A stretch of 38,285 bases of DNA from a virus. Lineage: Duplodnaviria > Heunggongvirae > Uroviricota > Caudoviricetes. The position numbers and the translations under genes were made by a program. Location of the stretch: IMG/VR virus record IMGVR_UViG_2541047777_000012. One strand, given 5' to 3'. Positions 2,110-34,219 of this stretch are shown here, in pieces (position 1 is the first letter of the stretch; every line of letters begins with the position of its first letter). The notes under the pieces were generated by a model. That model saw only the letters and a list, made by a program, of their open reading frames with translations. It ran no database searches and had not been told where the DNA came from.

Positions 2110-2119
2110 AGATATCCTT

Positions 2120-8067: not shown

Positions 8068-10515
8068 TTAACCGTCATGCATCATGCTGGCACGGGCGCG
8101 CGCACGTTTATCCCGCTCGTATTTTTCGAGCGCATCCTGTAACTGGCGGTCGAGCTGAGTCCCCGGCGCAGTACCGCCCGTCAGACTGATGTGATATTCG
8201 TTTTTACTCTGGTCCACATAAGAGCGGCCAGCCGGTGCCGTAACCGGCTGATAAGCCTGATAGCCTGCATAAGAGCTGGTCGCCGGAATATAACCACCGG
8301 TGCCATACGTGGCGGCATGAGTTCTGGCGGCGGTCTGGTCAAGCGTGCCTGACTCTTTGTTGATAACACCGAGTTTTTCCAGTACCCAGTCAATACCGCT
8401 GCGCAGTTTGTTGAACGCATTAAGCGGCAGCATCAACGCGTCAGCCAGTGCCTGCCCGAACATGACGCCCGTATCACGGCAACGGTTCAGGGTGTCCCGG
8501 GTGGCTTTGACCGGGGCAATCAGGTTTTTAAACCACTGCCACGCGGCCTGTAACTTTTCGCCCAGCCAGTCAAACACCGGCTTAAGTGGCGTGAACAGTT
8601 CCCCCACCGGCGCAAATGCCGCTTTCAGCCCTTCAACCACACCGCCAAAGAATGCGCTGACAGGCTCCCAGTATTTACGGATAAGTAACGCCCCGGCGAC
8701 AATGGCGGCCACCACGGCCACAACCGGCCAGCTAATCGCCCCGATGGCCGTCATAACAGCACTGCCAACCGTCGTGAAGATTGCTCCCATTGCGCCTGCT
8801 GCCGCGATGATGGCATTGATGCCGGTGATAACCGGCCAGGCTACGAGGCCAATGGCACCGATGACACCAATCAGTGCCAGTGCACCACCGACAATGATGC
8901 CGATGGTTGACGCCAGTGATTTGTTTTTCTGTATCCAGCCGTCGAGTTTTAACACATACTTTGTGGCCGTCTGCGTGAGCTTACGCAGTGCGCCTTCCTG
9001 CTGGTCAAACAGGTCAGTCCCCACCGCCTCATAAGCGGACTGAAACTCCTTAAAGTCACCGCCGAGGTTGTCCTGCATGATATTTACCAGCTCGGCGGTC
9101 TTCCCGTCTGAGGCTTTAAACGCAGCGGTCAGTTTGTCCAGCTTTCCAGTTGAGGCGGCAGTCATCAGCACGGCGGCGGCTGAGCTGGCCTCCTCCCCGA
9201 AAATAGTTTTCATGTATTCAGCCTGCTGGGCAGTACCGAGCCGGTTTTTCTCAAAACTGGCCTGCATTTCTTTCAGAATGGTAAATACTGGTCGAGTATT
9301 CCCTTTACTGTCTGAGGTTTTCACGCCAAGCTCTTTCAGTGCATCCCATGCTTTTCCCGTCGGTGCCTGCAGGCGGCTTAACACGGCACGGCTTCCCGTC
9401 CCCGCCATTGAACCGGTAATTTTTGCATCATGCAGCGCCCCGACCATTGCGGCGGTTTCTTCAATGCTGACACCGGCATTTTTTGCCACTGGTGCGGCAT
9501 AGGTCAGCGCATCGCTCATACCGTCAAAATCGGCGGCGGTTTTGTTCATCGTCATGGAGAGAACATCCCCGATATGAGCGACCTTATCGTTTGAAAGCTG
9601 AAAGGCGGATTTCATCCCCATCAGCAGGGCGGCGTTTTCTTCCATCGTGCGACGGTTCGCCAGCGCCATATTCAGCGTGACCGGCGTTGCCGCCTGAATG
9701 GCATCAACATCCCCACCGGCTTTCGCAATAATAATCTGCGCACCGGCTGCATCATCTGCCGAGGCTGCGGTATTGTCGCCGAGCTGGCGCGCCTGCTTGC
9801 GTAGTGCAGCCATTTCGGCGGAGTCTTTTGCCACACCGAGCACGGCCTGCAATTCTGAGTTTTTCTGCGCAAACTCATAACCGGGCATCAGCAACTTAAC
9901 TCCGGCCATCGTTCCCGCAGCAGCAATCCCCACACCGGCAGCGCCCACTGAGGCCATATTTCCGGCCAGTTCCTTTCCGGCCTGATAACGCTGTTTTACT
10001 GCGTTAAGTTTTGCCTGTTGTGCACTGACACGCGCCAGCGCGTCACGCTGACGGTTAAGCTGTGCGGTGGTTTCACTGATACGGTTTTTCAGTCCCTGCT
10101 CATCATGTGCAAGATTGCGGGTATTAATTCCCACAGCGGCCAGTTCCCGCTGCTGGCGTTTAATGGAATCTGTCAGGCGGTTATATTTCGCCTGTAAGTC
10201 CTCCGCCGCACGCTTTGCGGATTCCAGCACTTTCGCCTGAGCACGGGTCGGACGTTCAGTGTTTTTAAACTGTGTGGCAAGGGCTTCGGCTTCCTGCCGT
10301 GCCTTTTCAAGTGCATGACCAGTCACGGCAAGCTGTGCGCTGGTCTTGCGAAATCCCTCAATACGGGATGCGTGACCGTTCAGCTCGCGCAGTGATTTTT
10401 GTGTTTCCCGGATATCCCCCGACAGCGACTTACTCGCTGTGCGGATGGATTTAAACGGGCGGGATGCCTGGTCAACAGCCCTGAGCAATACCTGTAATTT
10501 TACATTGTTACTCAT
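8068..10515 (-). CDS. T: tail tape measure protein gpT
   Basis: 815 aa, Ala/Gly-rich with coiled-coil N-terminal part and hydrophobic central segments, located between E/E' and U. Confidence 0.9.
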   Translation of the reverse strand: MSNNVKLQVLLRAVDQASRPFKSIRTASKSLSGDIRETQKSLRELNGHASRIEGFRKTSAQLAVTGHALEKARQEAEALATQFKNTERPTRAQAKVLESAKRAAEDLQAKYNRLTDSIKRQQRELAAVGINTRNLAHDEQGLKNRISETTAQLNRQRDALARVSAQQAKLNAVKQRYQAGKELAGNMASVGAAGVGIAAAGTMAGVKLLMPGYEFAQKNSELQAVLGVAKDSAEMAALRKQARQLGDNTAASADDAAGAQIIIAKAGGDVDAIQAATPVTLNMALANRRTMEENAALLMGMKSAFQLSNDKVAHIGDVLSMTMNKTAADFDGMSDALTYAAPVAKNAGVSIEETAAMVGALHDAKITGSMAGTGSRAVLSRLQAPTGKAWDALKELGVKTSDSKGNTRPVFTILKEMQASFEKNRLGTAQQAEYMKTIFGEEASSAAAVLMTAASTGKLDKLTAAFKASDGKTAELVNIMQDNLGGDFKEFQSAYEAVGTDLFDQQEGALRKLTQTATKYVLKLDGWIQKNKSLASTIGIIVGGALALIGVIGAIGLVAWPVITGINAIIAAAGAMGAIFTTVGSAVMTAIGAISWPVVAVVAAIVAGALLIRKYWEPVSAFFGGVVEGLKAAFAPVGELFTPLKPVFDWLGEKLQAAWQWFKNLIAPVKATRDTLNRCRDTGVMFGQALADALMLPLNAFNKLRSGIDWVLEKLGVINKESGTLDQTAARTHAATYGTGGYIPATSSYAGYQAYQPVTAPAGRSYVDQSKNEYHISLTGGTAPGTQLDRQLQDALEKYERDKRARARASMMHDG

Positions 10516-10935
10516 TCGTGTTTCCGCTTCGCCGGAGCGCCTTTTCGCGCCATGTGATGAGTTCGGTCAGGCTCATGGGATACAGTTCTGATGGCGGCCA
10601 GTGAAATATCACTGCCACATCCGCCATCAGGTCATCGACCGAGAGATTTTTCGGGAACGTTACTGCACCGAGTTCGGCGACAAAAAACCGACCACCTTAC
10701 CGGCCAGCGCCACAAGGTCAGGCAGTTCCAGCGCGGCGACTTCCTGCTCGGTCAGCATCGGTGCCGTCATGCGCGGCAGCACCTTAATCAGTGCATCGAC
10801 TTCGGAGTTCGCGACCGCAGCCAGACTGACACCGCGCAGCGTCCCGGCATTAGGTTTCATCAGCGTGACCTGTTCGATAACCTGCTCACCACGCTTGACC
10901 GGATTGTCCAGGGTAATCACATTTTCTTTGTTCAT
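10508..10935 (-). CDS. E': gpE+E', predicted -1 programmed frameshift product of the tail chaperone (about 142 aa)
   Basis: From the TTTTTTG slippery site (plus coordinates 10681..10687) the -1 frame stays open to a TAA at 10508..10510, overlapping the T start as in P2. I translated this frame by hand. Confidence 0.7.
10660..10935 (-). CDS. E: tail assembly chaperone gpE
   Basis: 91 aa, same length as P2 gpE; contains the slippery run GGTTTTTTG near its 3' end. Confidence 0.85.
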   Translation of the reverse strand: MNKENVITLDNPVKRGEQVIEQVTLMKPNAGTLRGVSLAAVANSEVDALIKVLPRMTAPMLTEQEVAALELPDLVALAGKVVGFLSPNSVQ

Positions 10936-11522: not shown

Positions 11523-12713
11523 TTAATTGCTGTTAACCGAGGTGACCAGATTTGCCAGGTATTTATCGGTAATACGCTGGCGCAGGGTCAGGTTTTCAAG
11601 AGGAGGCACCGGTGTATAGTCGTAGTCGATATACAGTTTTCCGGCCTTGAGGGTTTCCGCATCGTTGGATTCTTCGCTGAACCAGCAGGTCGCATCCACG
11701 ATATAGCCGTTTGTTTTCAGCTCACGGAATTTGGCATTGATGCCGTCAACGATGTCGCGAATCAGCGTTGCGGTGATGGGCTTGTCCACCGCCCACATGT
11801 GCGCCTCAGCCATCGTATCGGCCAGCACCTGCGCGGTGCGGGTGTAGTTTTCAAAGAGGAAAAGCGGGTCATCAGAGCAGGTACGGTTACCCCAGAATCG
11901 GAAACCGTCACGGCGAATCAGCGTAGTGATGCCTGACTCGTTAAGCAGGTCAGCATCGGTGCCGGACTCCTGCAAATCCCAGAATACAGATGCGCTGATG
12001 CCGGTAACACCGTTCACCCCGACATTGGACAGTGTTTTATGCCAGCCCTGCTCCTGGTCGATTCTGGCACGCAGACCCAGCGCACGGGCGGTGGCATACG
12101 CGGTGGCGGTGGTGCTGGTGACCGTATCCCATGCGAGGAAATCCGGCCAGATGACCATCAGCTCACGCTGGCTGAAATTCTGGCGGTAGGCTTTCACCTC
12201 GGAAATGGTCTTACAGCCCCATGCGCTGATATACCCGAAAGCGCGCAGCTTCTGACAGACGGATACCAGTGCAACAGCCACCTCTTTGGTGTCCAGTCCC
12301 GGCACACCGAGAATACGCGGTTTAACACCGGTTACCGACTCCGCCGCCAGCAGGGCTTTCAGTCCGGTGTACTGACCGTTTTCGTCGGTAGTGCCGATGA
12401 TATTGGAAACGGTCTGCGCGAGTTTCGTTTCCTCGTCGTCGCCGGTGCCGTCTTCCACACGCACGACAACGGTGACCGGTTTTGACTGGTCGGCGATGGC
12501 CTGCAACGATGCCGCCAGCGTGCCTTTTTTACCGGCCTTTGCAATTGCGCTCTGCACATTGGTTATCAGCACCGGTTTATTGAGGGGGAAGGTTTCCGCA
12601 TCCGCATCGCTGGCCGTGCAGACCATGCCGACAATGGCCGTGGATACGGTGGAAATGACGCGGGTGCCGTCGTTAATCTCCAGCACCTGCACGCCGTGAT
12701 GATAGTCACTCAT
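11523..12713 (-). CDS. FI: contractile tail sheath protein gpFI
   Basis: 396 aa, P2 FI length and position (MSDYHHGVQVLEINDGTRVISTV...). Confidence 0.9.
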   Translation of the reverse strand: MSDYHHGVQVLEINDGTRVISTVSTAIVGMVCTASDADAETFPLNKPVLITNVQSAIAKAGKKGTLAASLQAIADQSKPVTVVVRVEDGTGDDEETKLAQTVSNIIGTTDENGQYTGLKALLAAESVTGVKPRILGVPGLDTKEVAVALVSVCQKLRAFGYISAWGCKTISEVKAYRQNFSQRELMVIWPDFLAWDTVTSTTATAYATARALGLRARIDQEQGWHKTLSNVGVNGVTGISASVFWDLQESGTDADLLNESGITTLIRRDGFRFWGNRTCSDDPLFLFENYTRTAQVLADTMAEAHMWAVDKPITATLIRDIVDGINAKFRELKTNGYIVDATCWFSEESNDAETLKAGKLYIDYDYTPVPPLENLTLRQRITDKYLANLVTSVNSN

Positions 12714-12817
12714 CCGTTTAACTCCGTGGTTAATGGGTGCAACTATTTTCTGTTGTGCAGAGTATGAGGCGCTATTTGACCTGGCTGGTCAGTGGATGAA
12801 ACAACAGATAAAGAAAA

Positions 12818-12836
12818 GGCGGGCAATTCGCCCGCC
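12818..12836 (-). terminator. GC-rich hairpin with a T-rich tract on the minus strand, between the cargo gene and FI
   Basis: ggcgggc-aatt-gcccgcc stem-loop; on the minus strand it is followed by ttttctttatct. Confidence 0.4.
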
Positions 12837-13113
12837 TGTCCTGATTTGTACTCACTCATTTTCCGCCTGACAATTTACATAGCCCAAATGCTATCAAATC
12901 TGACAGCCTGCTTTGAGCGAGTAACTAAATTTGATTTAAATAAATTATAAGGATTCAAATGTTATTGGCACAAATTCCTGAGATGCAAACAGTCACACTA
13001 AGTGTTCAAACAAGGTTCTGGACTACGGCTAACTCATCAGTTAAGTTTGTTTCCGACCTGTCGTTTCTTCCCTGTCAGGAGTCACTTTTCGTGTTATTTT
13101 TTAAGGATGTTTT

Positions 13114-13893
13114 ATGAGTAATGAAACACAATCATTCCTTAGTCAATTGCTAATATCCATAATCTCTATATCTTTAGGGTCATTTCTTTTTGCTGGAATC
13201 CTAGAGAGCTACAAAAAAGACCCAGATCTTCAGGAGGAGTTTATAAAGGATTACTTTAGGCCAATGATGAAATTACAAAGTTCTTGTTCATCTTCACATA
13301 ATGAACTATTTCTAAAGTATGGAGAGTTATCTGCTTCTTATCAGCTCATGTATAATGAAATAGTACATATGGCAATGAGCCCTGATTCAGAATTAGGACA
13401 ACATTATGAAGTTCTCCCGATGTCTCTTATTAAAACAAATGAAGAGTTAAAAAAAAGAGTTGAAGATCTTGAAATGACGGTAAAAAAATGCAATATCGAT
13501 TTATTCCTTAAGTACGAAGAGCTTGCATTAGTTACTGGTTCATATCCAGAGTTTAAGAGGCTGGCGAAAAAACACACTGACACAATTAACTCCATCTATT
13601 CAGAAAGACAAAAAAAAGCAAAGGGAAATGCAAAAAATATAGACCCTGATCAACTAATTCCATTGATGCGGAAATATATTGCCATGGATCCACACACCAA
13701 TGTAAACAAATCCATGCTTGCCAGTGAAATTGATAACATATCTAAACTAACAACACAGCATAATTTGATAATGGCAGAATATGAGGAGTTAATTTTCAAA
13801 GAAGATAATGATTTATTTATAACTCTTCATGATCTTTATGCAATCAAAATTAGTGAAAAGTATTCAGGTGGATTTATCAGTTGGATATTTTAA
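13114..13893 (+). CDS. hypothetical membrane-anchored protein (259 aa) occupying the P2 Z/fun cargo position; candidate exclusion or abortive-infection factor
   Basis: AAGGA RBS 5 nt upstream of the ATG; a single N-terminal hydrophobic helix (LLISIISISLGSFLFAGIL) followed by a Lys/Glu-rich soluble region. Clearly AT-rich, and convergent with the flanking late genes. Confidence 0.7.
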   Translation: MSNETQSFLSQLLISIISISLGSFLFAGILESYKKDPDLQEEFIKDYFRPMMKLQSSCSSSHNELFLKYGELSASYQLMYNEIVHMAMSPDSELGQHYEVLPMSLIKTNEELKKRVEDLEMTVKKCNIDLFLKYEELALVTGSYPEFKRLAKKHTDTINSIYSERQKKAKGNAKNIDPDQLIPLMRKYIAMDPHTNVNKSMLASEIDNISKLTTQHNLIMAEYEELIFKEDNDLFITLHDLYAIKISEKYSGGFISWIF

Positions 13894-14044
13894 AACATGA
13901 TAACTCATCAGATACAATGCTAACTATGTAGAACGCGTAAATCTGTGAAGGTTACCAATGTGTTAGGTAATGTCCGCTCCTTGCACAGAGCGGACTGTCA
14001 GATTAGGCTTTACTCTGTGCTATAGATATGTCAGCTCATACAAC

Positions 14045-14572
14045 TTATTGCGGCATTTCCGGCCATTCAGGATTTGCAGGATCCACACGGCTGACCAGAA
14101 CACTGTAGCGTTCCCATGCTTCCAGTCGGCTACGCTCCTCATCTGTTGCCATGTTCAGCCTGACAGCGCGCTCCAGTGGCTGAATAACGCTTTCCGCTTC
14201 GGAAAGTAACGCGGCCTTTTGTGATTCTGCCTGTTGTTGCTGTTCGTCTGCCGTATAAATCCGCTTAATCACGGCACCATCCTTAAACATCCATTTACCT
14301 GAGTCATCAGCACGTCGGTTGGCGGTAATATCAGGAACCTCGACAACGTTAAAACCTTCAGGGTTAAGCGTTGAAGCATCTCTGGTGATGCCGACAATTA
14401 TATTATTCTCGTCGTAAACAATCTTTATCGTGTCTTCCTGAAAATTACTTACTTCCTCATACCAGTTTTTTCCCTCTTCGGACCATAACCAGATAACATC
14501 AAAATTTTTTGTCAGTTGATATTGGGCAACAGTTTTTGGATTACCCGCAGTAATATTTTTTAAATGCTGCAT
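14045..14572 (-). CDS. G: tail fibre assembly protein gpG
   Basis: 175 aa, P2 gpG-like (MQHLKNI...[12 protein letters not shown]). Confidence 0.9.
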
Positions 14573-14575: not shown

Positions 14576-16870
14576 TTACACCTGTGCGACGTTATACCAT
14601 GTGCCATTGATGTATTTTTGTATTGGTCTGAATACTGCGGGATCATCACCATCGACTTCACCGACAATACCAAGCCCGGTAATTACGTGCCCTGCTTTCT
14701 CATACATCACCCCTTTCTGCATGGTCTGGACAACTCGAGTCCCAAGCCGGATATCGCGTACATAACGGGAATCAAAATTACTATAGTTAGATGGTGATAC
14801 CTGACCGTTAACAGCAAACGTGATGCTGTTATCTGTATTTCTCTGACTGTAAAAATGCCAGCCTGCATCATCACCTAATTCAGCCACCACCGGACGACTT
14901 GAGTTTCCCCACAAATTGAATGCGGCTTCCTTCGTGGATGTATTACTGCTGCTGACCGTGAATTTTTTCCCGCTACCGGCACGTACTTTGGTACTTGAGG
15001 CAATATCACCAGTAACACTCAGGCCATGCCCCATTGACACTCCGCCATTAGCGTTATTGATAGTCAGCGGCCTTAAACCGTTCCATGTCCCAAATTTATC
15101 GCCAGAGGCCGTCAGCATTAAATATGTGCTGCCGCCATCATTCCTGATAAAGAATCCATAATTGCCATAAGCAATGCGCAGACCATTAGCACTGAGTGAT
15201 GTAATCTCACCTCTTGAACGGAGACCATAAGCGGAGCTGAGTGATAATTCTTCCTGAGCGTCATAGTTTCCTGTCGCCCAGCGAATTACCCCGCCCTGTA
15301 CTGTTTCATGCCAGATAGTGTCTCCTTCTCCACCACGAAACTTTCTGAGATATTTTTTGCCGCCTCTGGTGCCTGAACATAAGGCCGTAGACATATAGGC
15401 ATTCTGGCTTCCGCCATCCTGATTAATCGTTCCGGTCATTGCGTCGCCCTGACGATTCCAGTCACGACGCCAGCCGGGGGAGTAGCCGTCCCCATGATTA
15501 ATGTAAGTGAATTGCGCGCTGGTTGTACCGCCACCACTTGATGTTGTCGGCGTGGTCACTCGAATAGTGATTGCAGATTTAGTTCCCATGACCTCGACGA
15601 CACAACCAGCCAGGTGGATATCACCACATCCGGTATCCGTAATGATTTTGTTATTTGCATATGACCAGGAGCCTTTGCACATCCAGTACGGATGATTAAA
15701 TGCACCACGGGAATCCAGCCATTCAATAAACTGAGCGGTTGTCCAGTTTCCGGCTTCAGTGCTCAAAGCGCCGCTATAAGCACGACAGGCACCGATATTT
15801 TTCGTGAAGGTATCCTTTCCCGGAATATCCGCACCGTTCTGATCTTTCTGAAGACGTTTTTCAGCATTGTCATAGGCAGACTTCACCGCTTTTGATGTTG
15901 CAGCCAGCGTTTCAGAATCGCTGTTGGTGGCGCTACTGAGCTGGACAAGACCTTTTCGCGCTGTGGTGGCATCCTGTGCAGTGTATTTCCCGTTAGCAAG
16001 GTCATACGCTGTCTTAACCGCCTTTGGTGTTGCCGCAAGCGTTTCAGAATCGCTGTTGGTGGCGCTACTGAGCTGAACAAGGCCTTTTCGCGCGGTGGTG
16101 GCGTCCTGTGCAGTGTATTTCCCGTTAGCAAGGTCATATGCTGCCTTTACCGCTTTCGGCGTTGCGGCGAGCGTTTCAGACATGCTGTTGGTCGCACTAC
16201 TGAGCTGGACAAGACCTTTTCGCGCTGTGGTAGCGTCCTGTGCGGTATATTTCCCGTTAGCAAGGTCATATGCGGCCTTAACCGCTTTCGGCGTTGCGGC
16301 CAGTGTTTCAGACGTACTGTTGGTCGCACTGCTTAACTGAGTAAAACCTTTTGCGGTCAGCGAGGCGTCCGGGTGACGTCGTGACTGTTCATGCTCTGCA
16401 ATCTTGTCATCAACGTAATCCTGCGTTGCCATCACCGTTGTGGTGTCAATAGTCAGCTCCACTGAGGCCACACTGCTGACGATGATGACCATGCGGCAGG
16501 TCTGCGAACGCCCTGAGCCTTCGGCAAGGGCAGGCTTATAACTTTCGGCCATGTTCGCCACGGCAATTAACGTTCCCGCATCATCGTACAGGCCAAGCTC
16601 ACGCATCCAGAAACCGCCCACCTCCGGCGGAATAACCAGCTCTGCGATAATATAATTACTGTTTCGTTTGTCCTGGCTGATTTTGTTCAGCGCATGTCGC
16701 CAGACTTCATGGATAAGCCCGGTCTGTCCGGCATCCGGGACAGGCAATTTACCCCCGCCATCCCCGACGGCCATCGTGGTAATGTTGACCTTCCGCCCTC
16801 CCGGTGCGGTTGCCGCTGCCAGCTTTGCTGCACCGGCAGTGGTGATAACGGTTCTGAATTTTGTGCTCAT
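14576..16870 (-). CDS. H: tail fibre protein gpH with expanded internal repeats
   Basis: 764 aa; P2 H-like N-terminus (MSTKFRTVITTAGAAKLAAATAPGG...) and C-terminus (...INGTWYNVAQV), with about 3.7 tandem copies of a 44-aa unit in the shaft. Confidence 0.9.
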   Translation of the reverse strand: MSTKFRTVITTAGAAKLAAATAPGGRKVNITTMAVGDGGGKLPVPDAGQTGLIHEVWRHALNKISQDKRNSNYIIAELVIPPEVGGFWMRELGLYDDAGTLIAVANMAESYKPALAEGSGRSQTCRMVIIVSSVASVELTIDTTTVMATQDYVDDKIAEHEQSRRHPDASLTAKGFTQLSSATNSTSETLAATPKAVKAAYDLANGKYTAQDATTARKGLVQLSSATNSMSETLAATPKAVKAAYDLANGKYTAQDATTARKGLVQLSSATNSDSETLAATPKAVKTAYDLANGKYTAQDATTARKGLVQLSSATNSDSETLAATSKAVKSAYDNAEKRLQKDQNGADIPGKDTFTKNIGACRAYSGALSTEAGNWTTAQFIEWLDSRGAFNHPYWMCKGSWSYANNKIITDTGCGDIHLAGCVVEVMGTKSAITIRVTTPTTSSGGGTTSAQFTYINHGDGYSPGWRRDWNRQGDAMTGTINQDGGSQNAYMSTALCSGTRGGKKYLRKFRGGEGDTIWHETVQGGVIRWATGNYDAQEELSLSSAYGLRSRGEITSLSANGLRIAYGNYGFFIRNDGGSTYLMLTASGDKFGTWNGLRPLTINNANGGVSMGHGLSVTGDIASSTKVRAGSGKKFTVSSSNTSTKEAAFNLWGNSSRPVVAELGDDAGWHFYSQRNTDNSITFAVNGQVSPSNYSNFDSRYVRDIRLGTRVVQTMQKGVMYEKAGHVITGLGIVGEVDGDDPAVFRPIQKYINGTWYNVAQV
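15855..16345. repeat. tandem 132-bp repeats (about 3.7 copies) inside the tail fibre gene H
   Basis: The motif agcgtttcag recurs at 15906, 16038, 16170 and 16302 (agtgtttcag in the last), i.e. an exact 132-bp period, giving the repeated peptide KAVKAAYDLANGKYTAQDATTARKGLVQLSSATNSxSETLAATP. Confidence 0.85.
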
Positions 16871-18313: not shown

Positions 18314-18661
18314 TCAACTCACAGGGATGGTTAACGAAAGTGGCTGGCCGGTGTCGTTGTGCTGGCCGGTTAACGTGACCGTCATTCGCCCGTCAAAGCT
18401 GCGCTCAGTGATGACGGATGACAGGGTGACGCGGGGTTCCCATTTCAGCACCGCCATGTAACAGGCGACCTTAATCTGCAACTCAAGCGCCGGGGTCTGC
18501 GGCTGGTCAATCATTGACGCCAGCAACGAGCCGTAATCTCGACGCATCACCCGTGAGCCGACCGGTGTGCGCAGGATATCGCCGATACTCTGGCTGATAT
18601 GCTCAAGGTCAGTGACAGTCAGGCCATCACTGCGATTCATTCCGAGATAACGCGCAGTCAT
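18314..18661 (-). CDS. W: baseplate protein gpW
   Basis: 115 aa, as P2 gpW. Confidence 0.9.
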   Translation of the reverse strand: MTARYLGMNRSDGLTVTDLEHISQSIGDILRTPVGSRVMRRDYGSLLASMIDQPQTPALELQIKVACYMAVLKWEPRVTLSSVITERSFDGRMTVTLTGQHNDTGQPLSLTIPVS

Positions 18662-19293
18662 AGAGGCCCCCCTGTTGTGCCGCCACTGTCTCCGGGGTGT
18701 TTATGGGTATGCAGTACCTTCCCGTTTGATGAGAGTTCACCGCCGGTGTGTTCAATGTTGCCGCGCATCGTCCCGCCCTTCTGTACTTCCAGCGTGCCGG
18801 TAATCAGCCTGTTGGTGCAGACCACCTCCGGCGTGTCCAGAGTGACACGGGTTGATGCTTTCACCGTGACCACCGGCACCGTGGCAGTAACAGAATCAGA
18901 AGCCGTCACGCTGGCCGTTTTAATTCCGCTTACCGTCAGTGCACTGGTTTCAGGTTCATACTCAATCACCGCCCCGTCAGGGAAACGTATGTGCAGGGCA
19001 TCCGCCGACGCAGACGGCGGAGGGTTATCGCCGGAATAAATCCCCGGCAGAACGAACGCCGTGTCGAGTTCACCGCCCACGGCCAGAATCAGCACCTGTT
19101 CCCCCACGGAAGGTGCCCACCATGTGCGCGAACGTCCGGCGCGATGGGTCAGCCACTGAAGCCAGTCGGTGCACATGCCGCCGGTCTGCACACGGCAGCT
19201 ACCGGCGTAAAGGTCGGTTTCGATGATAATGCCGGTGCGAATCATGTTGCGCAGTGCGCGCGCGAGTTCCTGAATATTTGCGAGAGTGTTCAT
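18658..19293 (-). CDS. V: baseplate spike / central hub protein gpV
   Basis: 211 aa, as P2 gpV (MNTLANIQELARALRNMIRTGII...). Confidence 0.9.
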   Translation of the reverse strand: MNTLANIQELARALRNMIRTGIIIETDLYAGSCRVQTGGMCTDWLQWLTHRAGRSRTWWAPSVGEQVLILAVGGELDTAFVLPGIYSGDNPPPSASADALHIRFPDGAVIEYEPETSALTVSGIKTASVTASDSVTATVPVVTVKASTRVTLDTPEVVCTNRLITGTLEVQKGGTMRGNIEHTGGELSSNGKVLHTHKHPGDSGGTTGGPL

Positions 19294-19393: not shown

Positions 19394-20746
19394 TTAATCG
19401 TTAATAAAAACTGAAAAACACCTCTCCCTTTCTATTAATTGATCCCCATTCCAAAAAGATACAAACATATAATGCAGTCCTTTGTAATGACAATCTTCCC
19501 AATGCTTAGCAAAATAACGCTCGCCAGTGTACCTTGCTACCTCATATGACTCATGATTACCCTTATTATCAACATTACCTGCATCAGGACCTGTATTTTC
19601 GACACGAAATTTGAACCTGGGATTAGAGTACTGTTCTTGTGAGTAATAGTACCCTTTAAATGAGATACCCATACCCTTTTTTATCATTCGAGAACAACAA
19701 ATATACTCATCATCAGACACATCATTTTCACTCTTCTTAAGCGTTGCTTTTACAATGAGTTTACCCCCCTCATCATTTATAGGCAGCAAATTACAATAAC
19801 GTTCGTTATCAAATACATATTGTCTGTAATTTATTGGTTTGCCTGAAGCATCTTTATAATTTGGGGTTAAATACAATTCCTTGTGTTCTACGCCATTGTT
19901 TCTGTTAATTTTATGTTTTAATTGAACATCATCAAGGCCTAATAACTCTACAAAACTTGCACCTATCATAATTGAGTTTTTAGGAGCTTTTTGCTGAAGT
20001 TTTGCCGCAACATCAACAAAAAAAGATGTCGCAGTCACTTCATGACTTTCCATATAGCCATATTTTGACCACACCACTTCCTCGTGAGGGCCATAGTCAA
20101 GACCAATTCTTATTCCTAAGTTTTCGTCAACTCCCAAATCACTCAATTTAGGTATAACAACCCCCTTGAACATTTCAATCAAAACAACGGCACAGTTTAT
20201 TGCATCAATTGCACTGTCTGCGATCTTATTGTTTTTATATCGGTCATTACTTCGGAAAAATGCCATTACTGCATCACCCATAATTCTATGGACGTGACCA
20301 TCAAATGCATTCACTGTTTCGATCGCACATCTTATAATATCATTTTTGATTCTAAATACTATTTCTGGTGGAAAAACAACCCCAAGTTTAGTTGAGCCGA
20401 TTATATCCATAAACATGGTAATGGAATAACCATTTCTCACCTCACCATCATCCATTTTATTAAAGTCCGGATGACATCCAAAACTTGTCATGAGTGGACC
20501 GTGCTTGCCAAATTTATTTCTAACAATATCTTTCACCTGATAACTTTGAACATCAGTTCCACCTACATCTTTTTTCAATGAAATAGAACTTCTTACGAAA
20601 CCAGAAGATTTACTTAAGCTCTCCGTGGCCAACTGTGTATTATCCACTGATTCAAATATAGCATCATGGACTGATTGCGATTTTGATTTTGAAATTATCT
20701 CTTCCAGCCTTTCATCTAATACTGAATAAATACTCTTTATGGACAT
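19394..20746 (-). CDS. class III nucleotidyl cyclase (adenylyl/guanylyl-cyclase homology domain) protein with N- and C-terminal extensions of unknown function; cargo gene 2 of the S-V cassette
   Basis: Cyclase motifs seen in the translation: SITMFMDIIGSTKLG (metal-binding Asp in FxDIxGxT), HRIMGDAVMAFF (second metal Asp in GDA), IRIGLDYGP and FFVDVAAKLQ. Start set at the ATG at 20746, which has GAAGG 8 nt upstream (450 aa); the ORF-track start at 20782 has no RBS. AT-rich. Confidence 0.75.
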   Translation of the reverse strand: MSIKSIYSVLDERLEEIISKSKSQSVHDAIFESVDNTQLATESLSKSSGFVRSSISLKKDVGGTDVQSYQVKDIVRNKFGKHGPLMTSFGCHPDFNKMDDGEVRNGYSITMFMDIIGSTKLGVVFPPEIVFRIKNDIIRCAIETVNAFDGHVHRIMGDAVMAFFRSNDRYKNNKIADSAIDAINCAVVLIEMFKGVVIPKLSDLGVDENLGIRIGLDYGPHEEVVWSKYGYMESHEVTATSFFVDVAAKLQQKAPKNSIMIGASFVELLGLDDVQLKHKINRNNGVEHKELYLTPNYKDASGKPINYRQYVFDNERYCNLLPINDEGGKLIVKATLKKSENDVSDDEYICCSRMIKKGMGISFKGYYYSQEQYSNPRFKFRVENTGPDAGNVDNKGNHESYEVARYTGERYFAKHWEDCHYKGLHYMFVSFWNGDQLIERERCFSVFIND

Positions 20747-20756
20747 ACAAAAACCT

Positions 20757-21296
20757 TCACCAATTAGATAAAGCAACCACATATATTAAAAAACAAAGCA
20801 CATAAACAGCCATTTTTATAAAGTCAATGGCTATGATTTGCATCTCATATTTGCTAGTTAATGCTCTGGAAAGAGTATAATTCAATGCAATTAACTGCTC
20901 CAACAACTCCAGATCACTCACTGACTTAAAACTACTAGAATAGCAATCAAGACTACTATAATAACTTGATATATCAACAAATGAAAAAGTATTCTCCTTA
21001 TCACTCTTAGAGATATTTGGAGTAACACCTTTTAGAGAAAATAACAAAGAGATCACCAATAACCCAACTATTACAATCAATAAAAGAGAGAGAAAAAGCC
21101 TATCACTATCCACATCTACCAGACTTATAACTTTGTCAAAATTTGCTATAATAGCAACAATTACAGCTGAAGCTAAGCTTAGTAATATCGTTGATTTAGT
21201 ATTGGCTGAATTTAAATAAGAATCCGTCCGCGCGATTGTTTTCAGCACCAGTTCAATTTTCTTTACAACATCATCTTCATTCTTTTTACATGTCAC
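20757..21296 (-). CDS. small integral membrane protein with three predicted transmembrane helices (179 aa); cargo gene 1 of the S-V cassette
   Basis: Hydrophobic segments TILLSLASAVIVAIIANF, LFLSLLLIVIVGLLVISLLFSL and IIAIDFIKMAVYVLCFLIYVVALS. GTG start 15 nt after the S stop with AGGAAGG upstream; the exact start is uncertain. AT-rich. Confidence 0.65.
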   Translation of the reverse strand: MTCKKNEDDVVKKIELVLKTIARTDSYLNSANTKSTILLSLASAVIVAIIANFDKVISLVDVDSDRLFLSLLLIVIVGLLVISLLFSLKGVTPNISKSDKENTFSFVDISSYYSSLDCYSSSFKSVSDLELLEQLIALNYTLSRALTSKYEMQIIAIDFIKMAVYVLCFLIYVVALSNW

Positions 21297-21311: not shown

Positions 21312-21773
21312 CTATTCTCTGGATTTTTCCAGAAGACAATTAATGATCGTTGATTCTATAAAGTCAATATCATTATGTGAAAAACCAAGTAGTTTACGTT
21401 CATCATACTTAATAGGTTTAACGTCGGGATTGGGTCTATCTTTTAAACCATACTGATGCACTCGCGCAATTCGTTGCACTCCGCTGGCAAACTCCACCAC
21501 CGCGGCACTCTCGCTACCGGTTGCTTTCATAAACCGGTTAGTGCGTAATTTCATAAACATTTCCCGCTTTATCCGGCCTTTCTTATTTCGCACTGGTTGT
21601 TTTTTCCTCGGTACATACGGCATACCATCCGGGGCTTTTTGTAATTTAATTCTCTGCTGCTGACGCTGGCGCAGTTTCTTCGCGACATCTACCGCCACTC
21701 GCCGACGCCCTGACGGTGACAGCGACTCAATCAGTCCGGTCAGCCGGTCTTCAAAACGCTTAAACTCATTCAT
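21312..21773 (-). CDS. S: tail completion protein gpS
   Basis: 153 aa, position and size as P2 gpS. Confidence 0.85.
   Translation of the reverse strand: MNEFKRFEDRLTGLIESLSPSGRRRVAVDVAKKLRQRQQQRIKLQKAPDGMPYVPRKKQPVRNKKGRIKREMFMKLRTNRFMKATGSESAAVVEFASGVQRIARVHQYGLKDRPNPDVKPIKYDERKLLGFSHNDIDFIESTIINCLLEKSRE
21339..21367 (-). promoter_or_regulatory. candidate sigma70 promoter inside the 3' end of S, oriented toward the S-V cassette
   Basis: On the minus strand TTGACT, a 17-nt spacer, then ATTAAT, about 40 nt upstream of the membrane-protein start. Sequence match only. Confidence 0.3.
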
Positions 21774-27694: not shown

Positions 27695-29467
27695 ATGACC
27701 ATCACCACAGACACCACTCTTTTACACGACCCGCGTCGTCAGGCGGCGCTGCTGTACTGGCAGGGGTTTTCCGTGCCGCAGATTGCCGCCATGTTGCAGA
27801 TGAAACGCCCGACGGTGCAGAGCTGGAAACAGCGCGACGGCTGGGACAGCGTTGCCCCCATCAGCCGTGTCGAAATGAGTCTGGAAGCGCGGCTGACCCA
27901 GCTCATCATCAAACCGCAGAAAACCGGCGGTGACTTCAAGGAAATTGACCTGCTCGGACGCCAGATTGAACGACTGGCACGGGTCAACCGTTACAGTCAG
28001 ACCGGCAACGAGGCAGACCTTAATCCGAACGTTGCTAACCGCAACAAAGGCGGGCGTCGCAAACCGAAAAAGAATTTTTTCAGTGACGAAGCCATCGAAA
28101 AGCTGGAGCAGATTTTCTTTGAGCAGTCTTTCGACTATCAGTTGCACTGGTATCGTGCCGGGCTTGAGCACCGCATCCGCGATATCCTGAAATCCCGCCA
28201 GATTGGCGCGACGTTTTATTTTTCCCGCGAGGCGCTGCTGCGCGCCCTGAAAACCGGCCATAACCAGATTTTTCTGTCGGCCAGTAAAACGCAGGCGTAT
28301 GTGTTCCGCGAATACATCATCGCCTTTGCCCGTCTGGTTGACGTTGACCTGACCGGTGACCCGATTGTCCTGGGCAATAACGGCGCAAAACTGATTTTTC
28401 TCGGCACCAACTCCAACACCGCGCAGAGCCATAACGGCGACCTGTACGTCGACGAGATTTTCTGGATCCCGAATTTTCAGGTACTGCGTAAGGTGGCATC
28501 AGGTATGGCCTCACAGAGTCACCTGCGCTCGACCTATTTCTCCACCCCGTCCACGCTGGCGCACGACGCCTACCCGTTCTGGTCGGGTGAACTGTTTAAC
28601 CGGGGACGCGCCAGCGCCGCCGAACGCGTGGAAATCGACGTCAGTCATAACGCCCTTGCCGGAGGTCTTCTCTGTGCGGACGGCCAGTGGCGGCAGATTG
28701 TCACCATTGAGGACGCCCTGAAAGGTGGTTGCACGCTGTTCGACATTGAGCAGCTCAAACGTGAAAACAGCGCCGACGATTTTAAAAACCTGTTCATGTG
28801 TGAATTTGTTGACGACAAGGCGTCGGTGTTCCCATTCGAGGAGCTGCAACGCTGCATGGTCGACACGCTGGAAGAATGGGAAGACTATGCGCCGTTTGCC
28901 GCAAATCCGTTCGGCTCCCGCCCGGTCTGGATTGGTTACGACCCCTCACACCGTGGCGACAGCGCCGGATGCGTGGTACTGGCACCGCCGGTGGTGGCCG
29001 GTGGCAAATTCAGAATACTTGAGCGCCACCAGTGGAAAGGCATGGACTTTGCCACCCAGGCGGAATCCATCCGCAAACTCACCGAAAAATACAACGTCGA
29101 ATACATCGGTATTGATGCCACCGGCCTTGGTGTCGGCGTGTTCCAGCTCGTGCGCTCGTTCTATCCCGCCGCGCGCGACATCCGCTACACGCCGGAAATG
29201 AAAACCGCAATGGTGCTCAAGGCAAAAGACGTCATCCGCCGTGGCTGTCTGGAATATGACGTCAGCGCCACCGACATCACCAGCTCGTTTATGGCTATCC
29301 GCAAGACCATGACCAGCAGCGGACGCAGTGCCACCTATGAGGCCAGCCGCAGCGAGGAAGCCAGCCACGCCGACCTCGCCTGGGCGACCATGCACGCCCT
29401 GTTAAATGAGCCACTCACCGCCGGTATCAGCACCCCGCTGACATCCACCATTCTGGAGTTTTACTGA
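27695..29467 (+). CDS. P: terminase large subunit (ATPase) gpP
   Basis: 590 aa from MTITTDTTLLHDPRRQAALLYWQG..., divergent from O as in P2. Confidence 0.9.
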   Translation: MTITTDTTLLHDPRRQAALLYWQGFSVPQIAAMLQMKRPTVQSWKQRDGWDSVAPISRVEMSLEARLTQLIIKPQKTGGDFKEIDLLGRQIERLARVNRYSQTGNEADLNPNVANRNKGGRRKPKKNFFSDEAIEKLEQIFFEQSFDYQLHWYRAGLEHRIRDILKSRQIGATFYFSREALLRALKTGHNQIFLSASKTQAYVFREYIIAFARLVDVDLTGDPIVLGNNGAKLIFLGTNSNTAQSHNGDLYVDEIFWIPNFQVLRKVASGMASQSHLRSTYFSTPSTLAHDAYPFWSGELFNRGRASAAERVEIDVSHNALAGGLLCADGQWRQIVTIEDALKGGCTLFDIEQLKRENSADDFKNLFMCEFVDDKASVFPFEELQRCMVDTLEEWEDYAPFAANPFGSRPVWIGYDPSHRGDSAGCVVLAPPVVAGGKFRILERHQWKGMDFATQAESIRKLTEKYNVEYIGIDATGLGVGVFQLVRSFYPAARDIRYTPEMKTAMVLKAKDVIRRGCLEYDVSATDITSSFMAIRKTMTSSGRSATYEASRSEEASHADLAWATMHALLNEPLTAGISTPLTSTILEFY

Positions 29468-30501
29468 TGAGCAAGAAAAAAGGGAAAACACCGCAACCTG
29501 CGGCAAAAACAATCACCGCCAGCGCCCCGAAAATGGAGGCATTCACCTTTGGTGAGCCGGTGCCGGTACTCGACCGCCGTGACATTCTGGATTATGTCGA
29601 GTGCATCAGTAACGGCAGATGGTATGAGCCGCCGGTCAGCTTTACCGGTCTGGCAAAAAGCCTGCGTGCTGCCGTGCATCACAGTTCACCGATTTACGTC
29701 AAACGTAATATTCTGGCTTCAACGTTTATCCCGCACCCGTGGCTGTCCCAGCAGGATTTCAGCCGCTTTGTGCTGGATTTTCTGGTGTTCGGTAATGCGT
29801 TTCTGGAAAAGCGTTACAGCACCACCGGTAAGGTCATCAGACTGGAAACCTCACCAGCAAAATATACCCGTCGTGGCGTGGAAGAGGATGTTTACTGGTG
29901 GGTGCCGTCCTTCAACGAGCCGACAGCCTTCGCGCCCGGCTCCGTGTTTCACCTGCTGGAGCCGGATATTAATCAGGAGCTGTACGGCCTGCCGGAATAT
30001 CTCAGCGCCCTTAACTCTGCCTGGCTGAATGAGTCGGCCACGCTGTTCCGCCGCAAGTATTACGAAAATGGCGCACATGCCGGATACATCATGTACGTCA
30101 CCGATGCCGTGCAGGATCGCAACGATATCGAAATGCTTCGCGAAAACATGGTCAAGTCGAAAGGCCGCAACAACTTTAAAAACCTGTTTCTCTATGCCCC
30201 ACAGGGGAAAGCCGACGGCATTAAAATTATCCCCCTCAGTGAAGTGGCGACGAAGGACGATTTTTTTAATATCAAAAAAGCCAGCGCCGCTGACCTGCTG
30301 GACGCGCACCGCATCCCCTTTCAGTTGATGGGTGGCAAGCCGGAGAACGTCGGGTCGCTGGGTGATATTGAGAAAGTGGCAAAGGTCTTTGTCCGCAATG
30401 AGCTTATCCCGTTACAGGACAGGATCCGCGAGATAAACGGCTGGCTCGGTCAGGAGGTCATCCGCTTTAAAAACTACTCACTGGACACTGACAACGACTG
30501 A
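29467..30501 (+). CDS. Q: portal protein gpQ
   Basis: 344 aa, as P2 gpQ; start overlaps the P stop. Confidence 0.9.
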   Translation: MSKKKGKTPQPAAKTITASAPKMEAFTFGEPVPVLDRRDILDYVECISNGRWYEPPVSFTGLAKSLRAAVHHSSPIYVKRNILASTFIPHPWLSQQDFSRFVLDFLVFGNAFLEKRYSTTGKVIRLETSPAKYTRRGVEEDVYWWVPSFNEPTAFAPGSVFHLLEPDINQELYGLPEYLSALNSAWLNESATLFRRKYYENGAHAGYIMYVTDAVQDRNDIEMLRENMVKSKGRNNFKNLFLYAPQGKADGIKIIPLSEVATKDDFFNIKKASAADLLDAHRIPFQLMGGKPENVGSLGDIEKVAKVFVRNELIPLQDRIREINGWLGQEVIRFKNYSLDTDND

Positions 30502-30504
30502 ACA

Positions 30505-31677: not shown

Positions 31678-33954
31678 TCAAATGGGTAACAAAAATCCAG
31701 GCCACTCATCAGCGACCTGATAATTGAAAGATTTCCCGTAATAATTTACGGTCGCGCCACGCGCCAGCGCCTCAAGCTCCCATCGCTGCGGCCTGATACC
31801 GTTCTGAGCAAGGTCAACGCGGATACGGGTAATTTGCATACGCTCCGACCGGGTCAGCCTGGCCGATGGCGCTATTTCATTCGGTTTTAACGGGCTTCCG
31901 TTTCTTTGCTGACGGTTTGGTGTTCTCAGGCCGTGTTTTAATGCGCCCCTGAGCGCCCTCACGACCTCCGGGTCATTCCATTCGATAACACCGTCATCAA
32001 CCAGATTAAGCACGGCTGCGGCGTGCTCAGAAGGTGTGGGAGCCGGTAACGAAGTATCACCACCGGTGAGCTTTCCACAGTTATTGACAGGACTCCGAGG
32101 CGCGGCGATGCCGCTTTTTAAAGTCAAAGGCTCAACGACCGGCTCTTTCGGCACAATGCGCCAGTCCGTGGTTCTGGTGATATGAATATGACGCGCGCCG
32201 AGATGCGGTGCGTAAATGCCGACCACTCTCTCGACTTCTTCCTCGTACTCGTTAACGTCATCCGACGGGCTACGGGCAACCCTGACAGTCTGACAATCGC
32301 GCGGGACATTTGCCCCACCCTGCGCGCTGATATACAACGCAAAATCACCACTGTCTGCGGCGGCGCGTGCAGCCTCGACGCGTTCGTCAAACTCATCAGC
32401 AATGCTGACGCCGCGAGGCAGTTTGCGTAGTTCACGGTAAGCCCCCATTGTCGGCAGGCCAACCGTTTTAAATTGTGGGATACGCCACGTTGACGCCCAT
32501 GCGGTAACAGCCGCAGCAGTGTCTTTCAGCGGTCTGCCGGTATCGTTATCGAGCTGACCATCCAGTGCATAGCCATCGATGTTTTTTGAGATGTATTTCG
32601 CGATATATCCCGCAGCACCGCCCCGGTTAAGGTGTTTTGCCTGAAAACGGTTTCGCGCGGCTCCTCTTTCGTCGCCATCCTCTTTGAGCGCATAACGACG
32701 CATGATTTCAATAATCTGGTTACGCTGGCGTGGATTACAAAAAAGCATCATATGCCAGTGCGGCGTTCCGTCGTGGTGTGGCTCGACGACACGCAAACCG
32801 TAGACCTGTAAATCATTATCCTTGAATGCCGTGCGCATCAGGCTCCAGATGCGGCAGAGATAACGCTGCGCATCCTTTGGATTAAATGCCTCATCGTTCC
32901 AGCCGTGATTAAGCTGAACGGTTTTACTTTCGCCTTTTCTGACCTGACGTGTCGGGTGATACTTTGACGGCGCGGTCAGCGTGATAAACATCCCCACATC
33001 ACCCTCTGCGGCGGCGTAACGCTCAATACCGGCAATGGTGTTCATCAGCTCCATCCGGCGAATTTCAGGATTAGAAATACTGCCCATCACCTTACTGATA
33101 AGGTCGATGCGCTCGCCGGTTTCCCTGTTTTCAAGGTCACACGATTTAAGAAATTCCAGATTTGCCTGGCGGCGCGCACGCACATCACGAATGGCATGTT
33201 TACTGGCATAAGGAGAACGGTCTTTATTGACCTCCCCGACAGCAATCAGTAACGCCTCATGCCAGCGCATACGCTGGCCTTTAAGCTGATGAGTCCACCA
33301 CTCATCGTTAAACAGGCGGGCAATGGCAGAATATGCCTGCCTCGTGGTCATCTGCCCTTTACGGTATTTTTTCCAGTAAAGCGGGGAAATATTGAAAGCA
33401 CGTGCAGCGCCAGCAACATGACCATAGAGGTGAGCCTGCGCCTCATCCGTAAACAGCGATTCTTTTTCGCCATGTGCATCAACCCAGGCATCGCAGAGTT
33501 CCTCATACATCATGAAAAGCTGCGATGAGATACGGGCAGCAAACTTTTTCAGCTCCTTGTCATTCATCCCCGGCAGGCGCGCATACTGGTCGCGCTCTGC
33601 CAGAAACAGCAACGACGCGTCGGTGTTCATTTCATGGCGCTGATTCACATGCTCAATGCGCGGCCATAAACGACGCTGAAAAGTGGATGTGAGGAAATAA
33701 AACCCGTGCACCGGGCTTTTATTGCGCCGGATGTAGTCATAGCGTGAAGTAAACAGCGAGCGCAAAAAGTAAGGCAGACGGTTAATCGTGGATAAAACCC
33801 CTTGCACCTGACGCATCTCGTCACGTGTAAGGGGTCTTTCGCGCCCGACAGCCTCGCGTGGCGCGTTCCATGCATAAGCACCGGTAAACGCCTTACCGGT
33901 GCCTGCGGCAAATGCTGACGGAGGGACAAAACGCCCGGAGGCTTTAACGGCCAT
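31678..33954 (-). CDS. A: replication initiation protein gpA (rolling-circle nickase)
   Basis: About 758 aa from the ATG (MAVKASGRFVPPSAFAAGTGK...); the longer ORF to 33996 begins with TTG. P2 gpA-like throughout. Confidence 0.9.
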   Translation of the reverse strand: MAVKASGRFVPPSAFAAGTGKAFTGAYAWNAPREAVGRERPLTRDEMRQVQGVLSTINRLPYFLRSLFTSRYDYIRRNKSPVHGFYFLTSTFQRRLWPRIEHVNQRHEMNTDASLLFLAERDQYARLPGMNDKELKKFAARISSQLFMMYEELCDAWVDAHGEKESLFTDEAQAHLYGHVAGAARAFNISPLYWKKYRKGQMTTRQAYSAIARLFNDEWWTHQLKGQRMRWHEALLIAVGEVNKDRSPYASKHAIRDVRARRQANLEFLKSCDLENRETGERIDLISKVMGSISNPEIRRMELMNTIAGIERYAAAEGDVGMFITLTAPSKYHPTRQVRKGESKTVQLNHGWNDEAFNPKDAQRYLCRIWSLMRTAFKDNDLQVYGLRVVEPHHDGTPHWHMMLFCNPRQRNQIIEIMRRYALKEDGDERGAARNRFQAKHLNRGGAAGYIAKYISKNIDGYALDGQLDNDTGRPLKDTAAAVTAWASTWRIPQFKTVGLPTMGAYRELRKLPRGVSIADEFDERVEAARAAADSGDFALYISAQGGANVPRDCQTVRVARSPSDDVNEYEEEVERVVGIYAPHLGARHIHITRTTDWRIVPKEPVVEPLTLKSGIAAPRSPVNNCGKLTGGDTSLPAPTPSEHAAAVLNLVDDGVIEWNDPEVVRALRGALKHGLRTPNRQQRNGSPLKPNEIAPSARLTRSERMQITRIRVDLAQNGIRPQRWELEALARGATVNYYGKSFNYQVADEWPGFLLPI

Positions 33955-34219
33955 ATGAGCCAAAAGCCTCTGAACAACGCCTGCTGAGTTGCTCAACCTG
34001 CGCGTTTAAATCAGCAAAAGACTTTGCGCTTCCGGTCAGAATATCGTGATGTATCAGGCCTGAAACGAGCTGGCTTAATTTCGGGTAATAACCAACCACC
34101 GCCAGCCATTCCTGACCGGCGTTTTTACCGCTTTCCGCTCTCTTTTTCTCGTGGAGAATAAACTGAAAGCTGTCACTGGTAACGACATAACGTTCGCCAA
34201 TTTCAATACGAATACTCAT
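33944..34219 (-). CDS. hypothetical protein (P2 orf83 position)
   Basis: 91-aa ORF between the zinc-finger orf and A, as in the P2 early region. Confidence 0.6.
   Translation of the reverse strand: MSIRIEIGERYVVTSDSFQFILHEKKRAESGKNAGQEWLAVVGYYPKLSQLVSGLIHHDILTGSAKSFADLNAQVEQLSRRCSEAFGSYGR

Follow-up and report, generated by a model that had tools for sequence, protein, structure and literature searches.

The Z/fun slot of a P2-like E. coli prophage holds a single gene for a membrane-anchored protein of 259 amino acids (aa), which represents a family that we consider a credible candidate for a single-gene, envelope-acting anti-phage defence and one of many uncharacterised cargoes in a well-known hotspot. 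The window, i.e., the whole stretch of DNA analysed, is the 38,285-nucleotide (nt) IMG/VR virus record IMGVR_UViG_2541047777_000012, a P2-like prophage with its insertion site beside yegQ. The cargo gene occupies positions 13114..13893 of the plus strand (stop codon included), between FI, the tail sheath gene (11523..12713, minus strand; Pfam sheath domains), and G, the gene for tail-fibre assembly (14045..14572, minus strand; Caudo_TAP). The FI-G interval of 1,331 bp is an AT-rich island, with a GC content of 0.30-0.36 over 12850-14049 as compared with 0.52-0.59 within FI. The cargo gene forms a convergent pair with G and a divergent one with FI, the orientation that the P2 record gives for fun(Z). 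P2 and P2-EC67 share 84-95% identity with the flanks, as far as 12921 on the FI side and again from 13968 on the G side. Compared by position, the cargo therefore replaces fun(Z) in the inverted-repeat-bounded Z/fun site of a P2-like phage. The fun locus is a defence-enriched P2 hotspot that accommodates fun and three validated systems (PMC9519451), and the Z/fun slot has also been documented as a defence hotspot elsewhere (PMC13586616; bioRxiv 2024.10.15.618418).

Open reading frame (ORF) calling, homologues and the ratio of nonsynonymous to synonymous substitutions (dN/dS) all identify 13114..13893 as a coding sequence. Because dN/dS is 0.06-0.31 in 28 pairwise comparisons involving seven homologues and full-length 259-aa homologues occur in several genera, from Enterobacter to Vibrio, we conclude that this is a real gene; it is one gene and is under purifying selection. 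A ribosome-binding site, AAGGA, is located at 13103-13107, 6 nt before the ATG, and is invariant among the four copies of the cassette described below. A second gene in the slot was considered, i.e., a 52-aa ORF at 12959..13117 with an AGGA motif and an ATGA overlap, and was rejected, as its frame closes after 16 codons in both Phytobacter and Superficieibacter and its ATG is ATA in Citrobacter; the remaining small ORFs of the slot lack support as well. Hydropathy analysis of the 259-aa protein reveals only one hydrophobic segment, aa 7-32, and a transmembrane (TM) helix is assigned to aa 9-30 (13138..13203, plus strand) from hydropathy, conservation and an AlphaFold2 helix at 8-32. Lysine and glutamate together make up 20% of the soluble part. 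The AlphaFold2 model, built from a 23-sequence alignment, is all-helical (predicted template-modelling score 0.72; predicted local distance difference test score 78), with helices after the TM segment at 37-88, 100-141, 144-172, 178-190 and 196-247 that form an up-down-up-down bundle about 50 residues long. These results bear out most of a preliminary description of the interval, made from the sequence letters, which had proposed an AT-rich FI-G interval with one plus-strand gene and a good ribosome-binding site, an N-terminal TM helix followed by a Lys/Glu-rich helical soluble part, and thus a single membrane-anchored cargo protein at the P2 Z/fun position, a known variable defence slot.

We found no homology between the cargo protein and P2 Fun(Z) (NP_046777.1): the best local BLASTP match has an expectation value (E) of 0.41 over 14 residues, and the two proteins are 259 and 528 aa long. 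The protein has no match in Pfam at E up to 1, for which 66 diverse family members give only singleton sub-threshold noise, and no match among PADLOC-DB v2.0.0 families at E up to 10 or among Protein Data Bank (PDB) sequence profiles. NCBIfam returned nothing above cut-off, the best match being a hemerythrin domain at 13.7 bits versus 51.75. A hemerythrin-like or other metal site, considered from this weak match and a C58-x3-H62 motif, was rejected, as H62 and H85 are lost in distant members; the loss of H62 argues against a metal site. A C-terminal 'WxF' tail resembling those of outer membrane proteins that activate DegS was likewise rejected, since the alignment shows that the terminal Phe is lost in distant members. 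A strong match was obtained to PHROG 7729, which is of unknown function (E 2.2e-126; profile positions 1-181 of 181 on aa 79-259, window 13348-13890). Both the 181-position profile and the 182-aa representative P0066 begin at Met79, which indicates that the underlying phage annotations leave out the TM helix as well as the conserved stretch next to the membrane. Yersinia phage L-413C has the same slot content (98.6% nt and 98.8% aa identity), with the protein recorded as 'hypothetical protein' (L-413Cp20; NP_839869.1; UniRef Q858V2), and is the sole carrier among 50,697 phage records. The protein is therefore already public as hypothetical, through L-413C and PHROG 7729, and is not new to databases. 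The preliminary description had left open whether it was a Fun homologue or something new: the first is excluded, and the second holds for function, for which we found no annotation, and not for the sequence itself. Overall, its identification of the slot and of a single membrane-anchored cargo stands, and its suggestion of novelty was half right.

The family is small and scattered. An exhaustive profile search at E<=1e-3 gave 90 matches among 1.84 billion representatives, nearly all of 250-300 aa, and every name in the 90% cluster of 176 sequences is hypothetical or uncharacterised. Among 5,426 complete E. coli genomes, 1,010 match the slot flanks and 13 carry the gene. A scan of 185,579 genomes, one per species, with alignment A1 yielded 13 loci, in Gamma- and Betaproteobacteria and one Nitrospirota metagenome-assembled genome (MAG), and one conjugative Burkholderia plasmid bears a family member. 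The GC content of the cargo gene is 5-22 points under that of its flanks in every host, as is typical of horizontally acquired cargo.

We examined the neighbours of family genes in unrelated bacteria and found no recurring partner gene or operon across 16 contexts; the family gene thus stands alone. The neighbours themselves often belong to defence or mobile functions. In Vibrio sagamiensis, hsdM-hsdS-hsdR lies directly upstream of the family gene and an HNH gene downstream; in Phytobacter, PDC-S06 (E=0) is tail-to-tail with it; and in Superficieibacter, it forms a two-gene islet with a PLDc_2x2/DrmC-like nuclease between exbB and pfkB. AbiEi/AbiEii are found about 0.6 kb downstream in Thiodiazotropha, PD-Lambda-1 (1.8e-165) 2.4 kb upstream in a Kangiellaceae MAG and a DpdF-like helicase 3 kb away in Pseudomonas, with VapBC near one further family locus and a NERD-UvrD helicase and a transposase fragment near another. 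Altogether, roughly 10 of about 16 independent contexts have known or candidate defence, restriction-modification (R-M) or toxin-antitoxin (TA) genes no more than about 3 kb away, a raw count from a small sample. The Pectobacterium member is in an integrase island after uvrC-pgsA (locus L025, 5341-9745), where the gene order is int, a gene for a 181-aa protein of unknown function, the family gene, a gene for a 288-aa protein of unknown function, two HTH_35 genes and a type VI secretion system (T6SS) hcp-vgrG-Rhs cluster; the 181-aa and 288-aa flanking proteins have no Pfam match. In Teredinibacter turnerae (locus L007, 1-16780), the family gene is part of a cassette-like array that also includes a HEPN gene and an IS110 transposase. 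The small same-strand genes of this array (ABM, methyltransferase, acetyltransferases and CN hydrolase) are reminiscent of a chromosomal cassette array.

A fusion protein provides a further link to defence. P0121, of 512 aa, consists of a Peptidase_C14 caspase domain (E 2.4e-17) with intact SGHG and DACFSG motifs, one TM segment and then the family domain, which retains E31, C58 and C126. The fusion is encoded on two independent metagenomic contigs (locus L005, 8001-9539; locus L006, 3593-5131) and adjoins a type I R-M operon in which a gene for an AAA_13 ATPase separates hsdS from hsdM. Together, the context in unrelated bacteria and the caspase fusion lend independent support to a defence role, which we infer from these associations. 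The preliminary description had named exclusion and abortive infection as candidate modes of such a defence, and the sequence would be compatible with either.

An alignment of 66 diverse members has four peaks of conservation: the second half of the TM helix with the juxtamembrane region (LGSFLFAGxLExYK), C58 and C126, the EELALVTG turn at 135-142, and the C-terminal tail at 246-255. The most conserved stretch in the family is LGSFLFAGIL, in the C-terminal half of the TM helix, together with E31-x-Y-K. Variable regions comprise residues 85-125 and 150-222, which are distal in the model, and all conserved patches are predicted by the model to be at the membrane-proximal end. C58 (codon TGT, 13285..13287, plus strand) and C126 (codon TGC, 13489..13491, plus strand) are the only conserved cysteines, and both are present in 93 of 101 members. 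They are lost jointly, and independently each time, in five members whose nearest relatives retain both, and C58 is never lost alone (Fisher 7e-7 for the co-loss, uncorrected for phylogeny). Such a co-varying pair would fit a disulfide formed in the periplasm. Some members have long polar N-terminal tails (43, at least 28, and 24 aa) with no alternative start before the TM helix, which favours a cytoplasmic N-terminus. Furthermore, the caspase domain of P0121 lacks a signal peptide and must be cytoplasmic, which would put the helical bundle outside. The side of the membrane on which the bundle lies is the key point, and on weighing these features against the charge bias described below we lean, with modest conviction, toward the periplasm.

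The gene is carried in a mobile cassette. Comparison by blastn with chromosomal loci delimits a 1,093-bp unit at 12903..13995 (plus strand), composed of a leader of about 210 nt, the coding sequence and a trailer of about 100 nt. The cassette occurs at non-P2 sites in the chromosomes of Superficieibacter electus and Phytobacter diazotrophicus (85% identity) and Citrobacter amalonaticus (79%), and there are no P2 tail genes within 10 kb of these three sites. In the prophage, P2 backbone is present left of the cargo (12714..12902, minus strand; 87-95% identity to P2/P2-EC67), with homology that stops at 12920/12921, restarts at 13968/13973 and continues through the backbone downstream of G (13996..14044, minus strand). 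The borders are marked by a 25-nt inverted repeat, with the left arm AATCTGACAGCCTGCTTTGAGCGAG at 12897..12921 pairing with the right arm at 13980..14004; 20 of the 25 positions are complementary, and the score exceeds those of all 500 of 500 shuffles. The overlaps between phage and chromosomal homology coincide with this repeat, which is inside the 'left/right inverted repeat' features annotated at the same slot in AJ512685. The left-arm core TTTGAGCGAG is common to three different Z/fun cargoes (alignment A4), and near-identical variants are found in the chromosomal copies.

At the right border of the cassette is a palindrome, GTCCGCTCcttgcacaGAGCGGAC (GTCCGCTC-8 nt-GAGCGGAC; 13972..13995), for which the chance expectation is 0.01. 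This palindrome is GC-rich and has no T-run on either strand, and its sequence is better read as a border element resembling repetitive extragenic palindromic (REP) sequences than as a classical terminator. REP-like palindromes, GTCCGCTGTGAGCGAnnnGCGGAC and GTCCGCTCCTGnCACAnnGCGGAC, lie on both sides of the cassette in the chromosomes of three genera, with three copies of the GTCCGCTGTGAGCGAnnnGCGGAC type within 20 kb of Superficieibacter, and the mapped copies are at 866-889, 9463-9486 and 10900-10923 of locus L012, 10859-10923 of locus L011 and 8674-8739 of locus L013. The ends of the P2 Z/fun slot are formed by the same type of palindrome as the chromosomal cassette borders, which suggests that cargo is exchanged between phage and chromosome at REP-like palindromes. 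Because the cassette ends are shared by the phage slot and the chromosomal sites, the cargo is best described as a 1.1-kb cassette that would be swapped at palindromic repeats. An integron attC site at the right end, with a GTTAGGT core before the hairpin, was judged by eye and set aside, as a 7-mer this degenerate should turn up by chance and there is no partner core.

The left hairpin is of a different kind. A terminator scan identified a canonical intrinsic terminator on the minus strand at 12817-12837 (9-bp stem with 7 GC pairs, followed by a T-run), immediately upstream of the activator site for pF. Mapping from the P2 annotation puts the transcription start site of the pF late promoter at about 12738 and its activator site at about 12782-12810 on the minus strand. 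This terminator is in sequence kept among P2-like phages, which indicates that it is a backbone feature and not part of the cargo. Thus, the two hairpins described at the outset as flanking the gene are both present, and the left one belongs to the P2 backbone as a minus-strand terminator, with the right one being the cassette border without a T-run. The leader of about 210 nt is kept in all four cassette copies; distant homologues lack it, with homology beginning about 20 nt before the ATG. A specially conserved 5' leader or riboswitch was rejected, as the leader copies show 83-84% identity, in line with the 81% at third codon positions, and no Rfam match was obtained. The leader also contains a minus-strand sigma-70-like promoter at 12971..12944 (10 of 12 positions matched), whose perfect TATAAT does not vary among the four copies and from which a short divergent transcript could arise. 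This promoter faces out of the leader toward the terminator at 12817-12837, about 110-130 nt off.

Based on these findings, we tentatively read the protein as a periplasm-facing, envelope-acting anti-phage defence that functions as a stand-alone single protein, a reading to which we give somewhat less than even credence. A self-contained sensor-effector is the most economical reading because the gene stands alone, its TM helix and base are conserved and the remainder is variable, the cassette is portable, defence genes are neighbours and a caspase fusion exists. Under this proposal, the protein would be anchored with its N-terminus inside and its C-terminus outside, and its bundle would reach about 7-8 nm into the periplasm, braced by a Cys58-Cys126 disulfide. 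The variable distal tip might recognise a periplasmic cue of foreign phage genome ejection, such as a tape-measure or other ejection protein or an entry factor of the host that has been perturbed, and recognition might then drive self-association of the conserved membrane-proximal base and the TM helix through its GSFLFAG small-residue motif. In the caspase fusion, such clustering would activate the cytoplasmic protease by proximity, and in the stand-alone protein it could locally compromise the inner membrane or the entry channel and halt DNA translocation. At high multiplicity, damage to the membrane or entry channel would kill the cell, such that an entry block would shade into abortive depolarisation. 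Stated in its most general form, the proposal would define a one-protein 'periplasmic sentinel' class, in which a disulfide-braced bundle senses ejection before phage gene expression and signals through the TM helix to the membrane or to a fused caspase, and which moves between hotspots in phages and defence islands in chromosomes in the form of a 1.1-kb cassette bounded by palindromes; we regard this extended version as unlikely.

Several observations weigh against the proposed periplasm-facing defence. In close relatives, including the protein studied here, there are 0-1 Lys/Arg residues before the TM helix and 3-4 in the 15 residues after it, a bias that by the positive-inside rule would put the bundle in the cytoplasm (N-out/C-in). 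The proximity of Cys58 and Cys126 is inferred from helix register only, and the structural matches of the bundle are generic four-helix bundles, which are functionally uninformative. The genomic association is imperfect, with some family loci having housekeeping or T6SS neighbours only, and the context counts rest on about 16 loci because very few species genomes carry the family (13 of 185,579). The caspase fusion is one protein, which matches the family profile at E 8e-8. Neither a scan nor inspection by eye found a convincing sigma-54 or sigma-70 promoter upstream of the gene on the plus strand, which makes expression in lysogens uncertain. Finally, we found no function name or published test for the family, and WP_001540329, WP_065275707 and NP_839869 are absent from the DefensePredictor and Vassallo 2022 supplements.

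The charge bias leads directly to an alternative in which the protein is a classical abortive-infection factor of N-out/C-in topology, whose cytoplasmic bundle senses a phage product and whose TM helix oligomerises into a depolarising pore that kills the cell. We consider this improbable, though well short of negligible. In addition to the Lys/Arg distribution, the short N-terminal tail of 8 aa is uncharged or acidic and could be translocated, the TM helix is highly conserved and rich in Gly and Ser, and the defence-island contexts fit equally well; TM proteins are also common as suicide effectors in defence systems (PMC9122126). However, this topology would place the P0121 caspase, which has no signal peptide, on the outside of the cell and would require export of the polar, charged N-terminal tails of 24-43 aa in other members, and a strictly co-varying Cys pair without other conserved ligands would be unusual for a cytoplasmic domain. 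A second alternative is that the protein has no role in defence and is instead a lysogenic-conversion or envelope factor (acting, for example, on stress or signalling in the envelope, on the cell surface or on resistance to colicins or to T6SS effectors) that rides in islands as mobile cargo. Non-defence cargo is also known from P2 hotspots (PMC9122126; bioRxiv 2024.10.15.618418), several family contexts have only housekeeping, T6SS or small hypothetical neighbours, and the fold resembles periplasmic four-helix-bundle sensor domains. A UniRef name, 'Lysogenic conversion protein', and a note in AJ512685, which concerns a different cargo, also exist, and both are uninformative as labels. Against such a role, direct adjacency to R-M, Abi, PD-Lambda-1 or PDC-S06 genes recurs across independent lineages, the fused caspase is a domain typical of conflict systems, and the family gene is not found downstream of a toxin gene, unlike immunity genes. 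We therefore think a non-defence function doubtful.

The leader raises the further idea that the gene is the toxic half of a selfish addiction module, in which a leader-encoded RNA restrains the protein in the manner of type I systems and the module stabilises the cassette. Retention of the leader of about 210 nt in all four copies and the invariant TATAAT with its -35-like hexamer (12971..12944), directed out of the leader on the minus strand, would agree with this idea, as would the frequent adjacency of the cassette to TA loci. The leader is nevertheless under no extra constraint relative to third codon positions and has no Rfam match, the more distant homologues lack it, and type I toxins are shorter than 60 aa, as compared with a 259-aa protein that has a structured domain of 225 aa with a variable surface; an addiction module thus appears very unlikely. 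The position among tail genes, and nothing else, would speak for a service to P2 itself, as a tail or tail-fibre assembly factor or an accessory to lysis or injection. The gene is, however, missing from about 99% of P2-like Z/fun slots (present in 13 of 1,010 genomes), L-413C is the only sequenced phage that has it, its transcription opposes the late operons and the same cassette occupies non-phage chromosomal sites, and we give this explanation almost no credence.

A defence role for this family would be significant for several reasons. The cargo has been missed by PADLOC and Pfam, though P2 hotspots had already yielded several defence systems. If active, it would be a very compact single-gene system of 780 bp and could be among the few systems that sense infection from the periplasm, a stage at which few immune sensors are known. 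The caspase-fused paralogue would provide a natural system in which to study signalling across the membrane, and the sharp cassette ends common to the phage slot and the chromosomes of other genera provide a substrate for studying how hotspot cargo is swapped. In addition, L-413C is a plague diagnostic phage that carries the gene, and any exclusion phenotype could affect mixed-phage applications.

Other features of the prophage were also noted. Baseplate gene V (18658..19293) and gene S (21312..21773) flank the orf30 slot (19394-21296, minus strand), where a Pycsar-type system of two genes encodes a 462-aa cyclase (Guanylate_cyc and AGS_C) and a 179-aa PycTM effector; the prophage therefore has at least one recognisable defence system, Pycsar, apart from the Z/fun cargo. 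The cos-proximal old/tin hotspot (30502-31677, about 1.2 kb), flanked by portal gene Q (29467..30501) on one side and replication gene A (31678..33996) on the other, has no ORF longer than 81 aa and looks empty or decayed; according to a 2026 NAR (Nucleic Acids Research) survey, empty P4/P2 hotspots are rare. The translation of tail fibre gene H (14576-16870, minus strand) shows four tandem units of about 45 aa (…TAQDATTARKGLVQLSSATNSxSETLAATPKAVKxAYDLANGKY…). Left of yegQ (window 1-4050, minus strand), there are three genes for DUF4034 (715 aa), DUF1266 (238 aa) and PcfJ-like (404 aa) proteins, a block that is found in strains such as S88 and in place of which GB089 has baeSR/yegP/parDE. The Z/fun slot is 99.5% identical to that of GB089, with collinearity limited to the tail region.

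We compared the cargo with known systems. P2 Fun(Z), the T5-exclusion gene product of reference P2, is encoded in the same G-FI slot and in the same orientation, as a single gene in an inverted-repeat-bounded site. The two proteins nevertheless have no sequence relationship and differ in length (528 versus 259 aa), and Fun(Z) is not annotated as a membrane protein in the P2 record; the T5 phenotype of Fun(Z) cannot be transferred to the 259-aa cargo protein. The periplasmic four-helix-bundle sensor domains of Tar/Tsr, NarQ, TorS and QseE resemble the cargo bundle in fold. Membrane-anchored exclusion proteins, such as those of the lactococcal Sie2009 type, P22 SieA and T4 Sp/Imm, are prophage-encoded products of single genes, anchored by an N-terminal helix and expressed in lysogens against heterologous phages, and are thought to act at DNA entry. 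Their likeness to the cargo protein is in architecture and proposed site of action only. Most of them occur in phages of a single host group, whereas the cargo family is scattered over chromosomal defence islands of Gamma- and Betaproteobacteria and Nitrospirota. Zorya ZorAB and Kiwa KwaAB, which detect infection not in the cytoplasm but at the membrane or in the periplasm, are multi-protein complexes with multi-pass membrane subunits. Their PADLOC models do not match the single-pass cargo protein, and what the cargo family would share with them is the concept of sensing infection at the level of the envelope.

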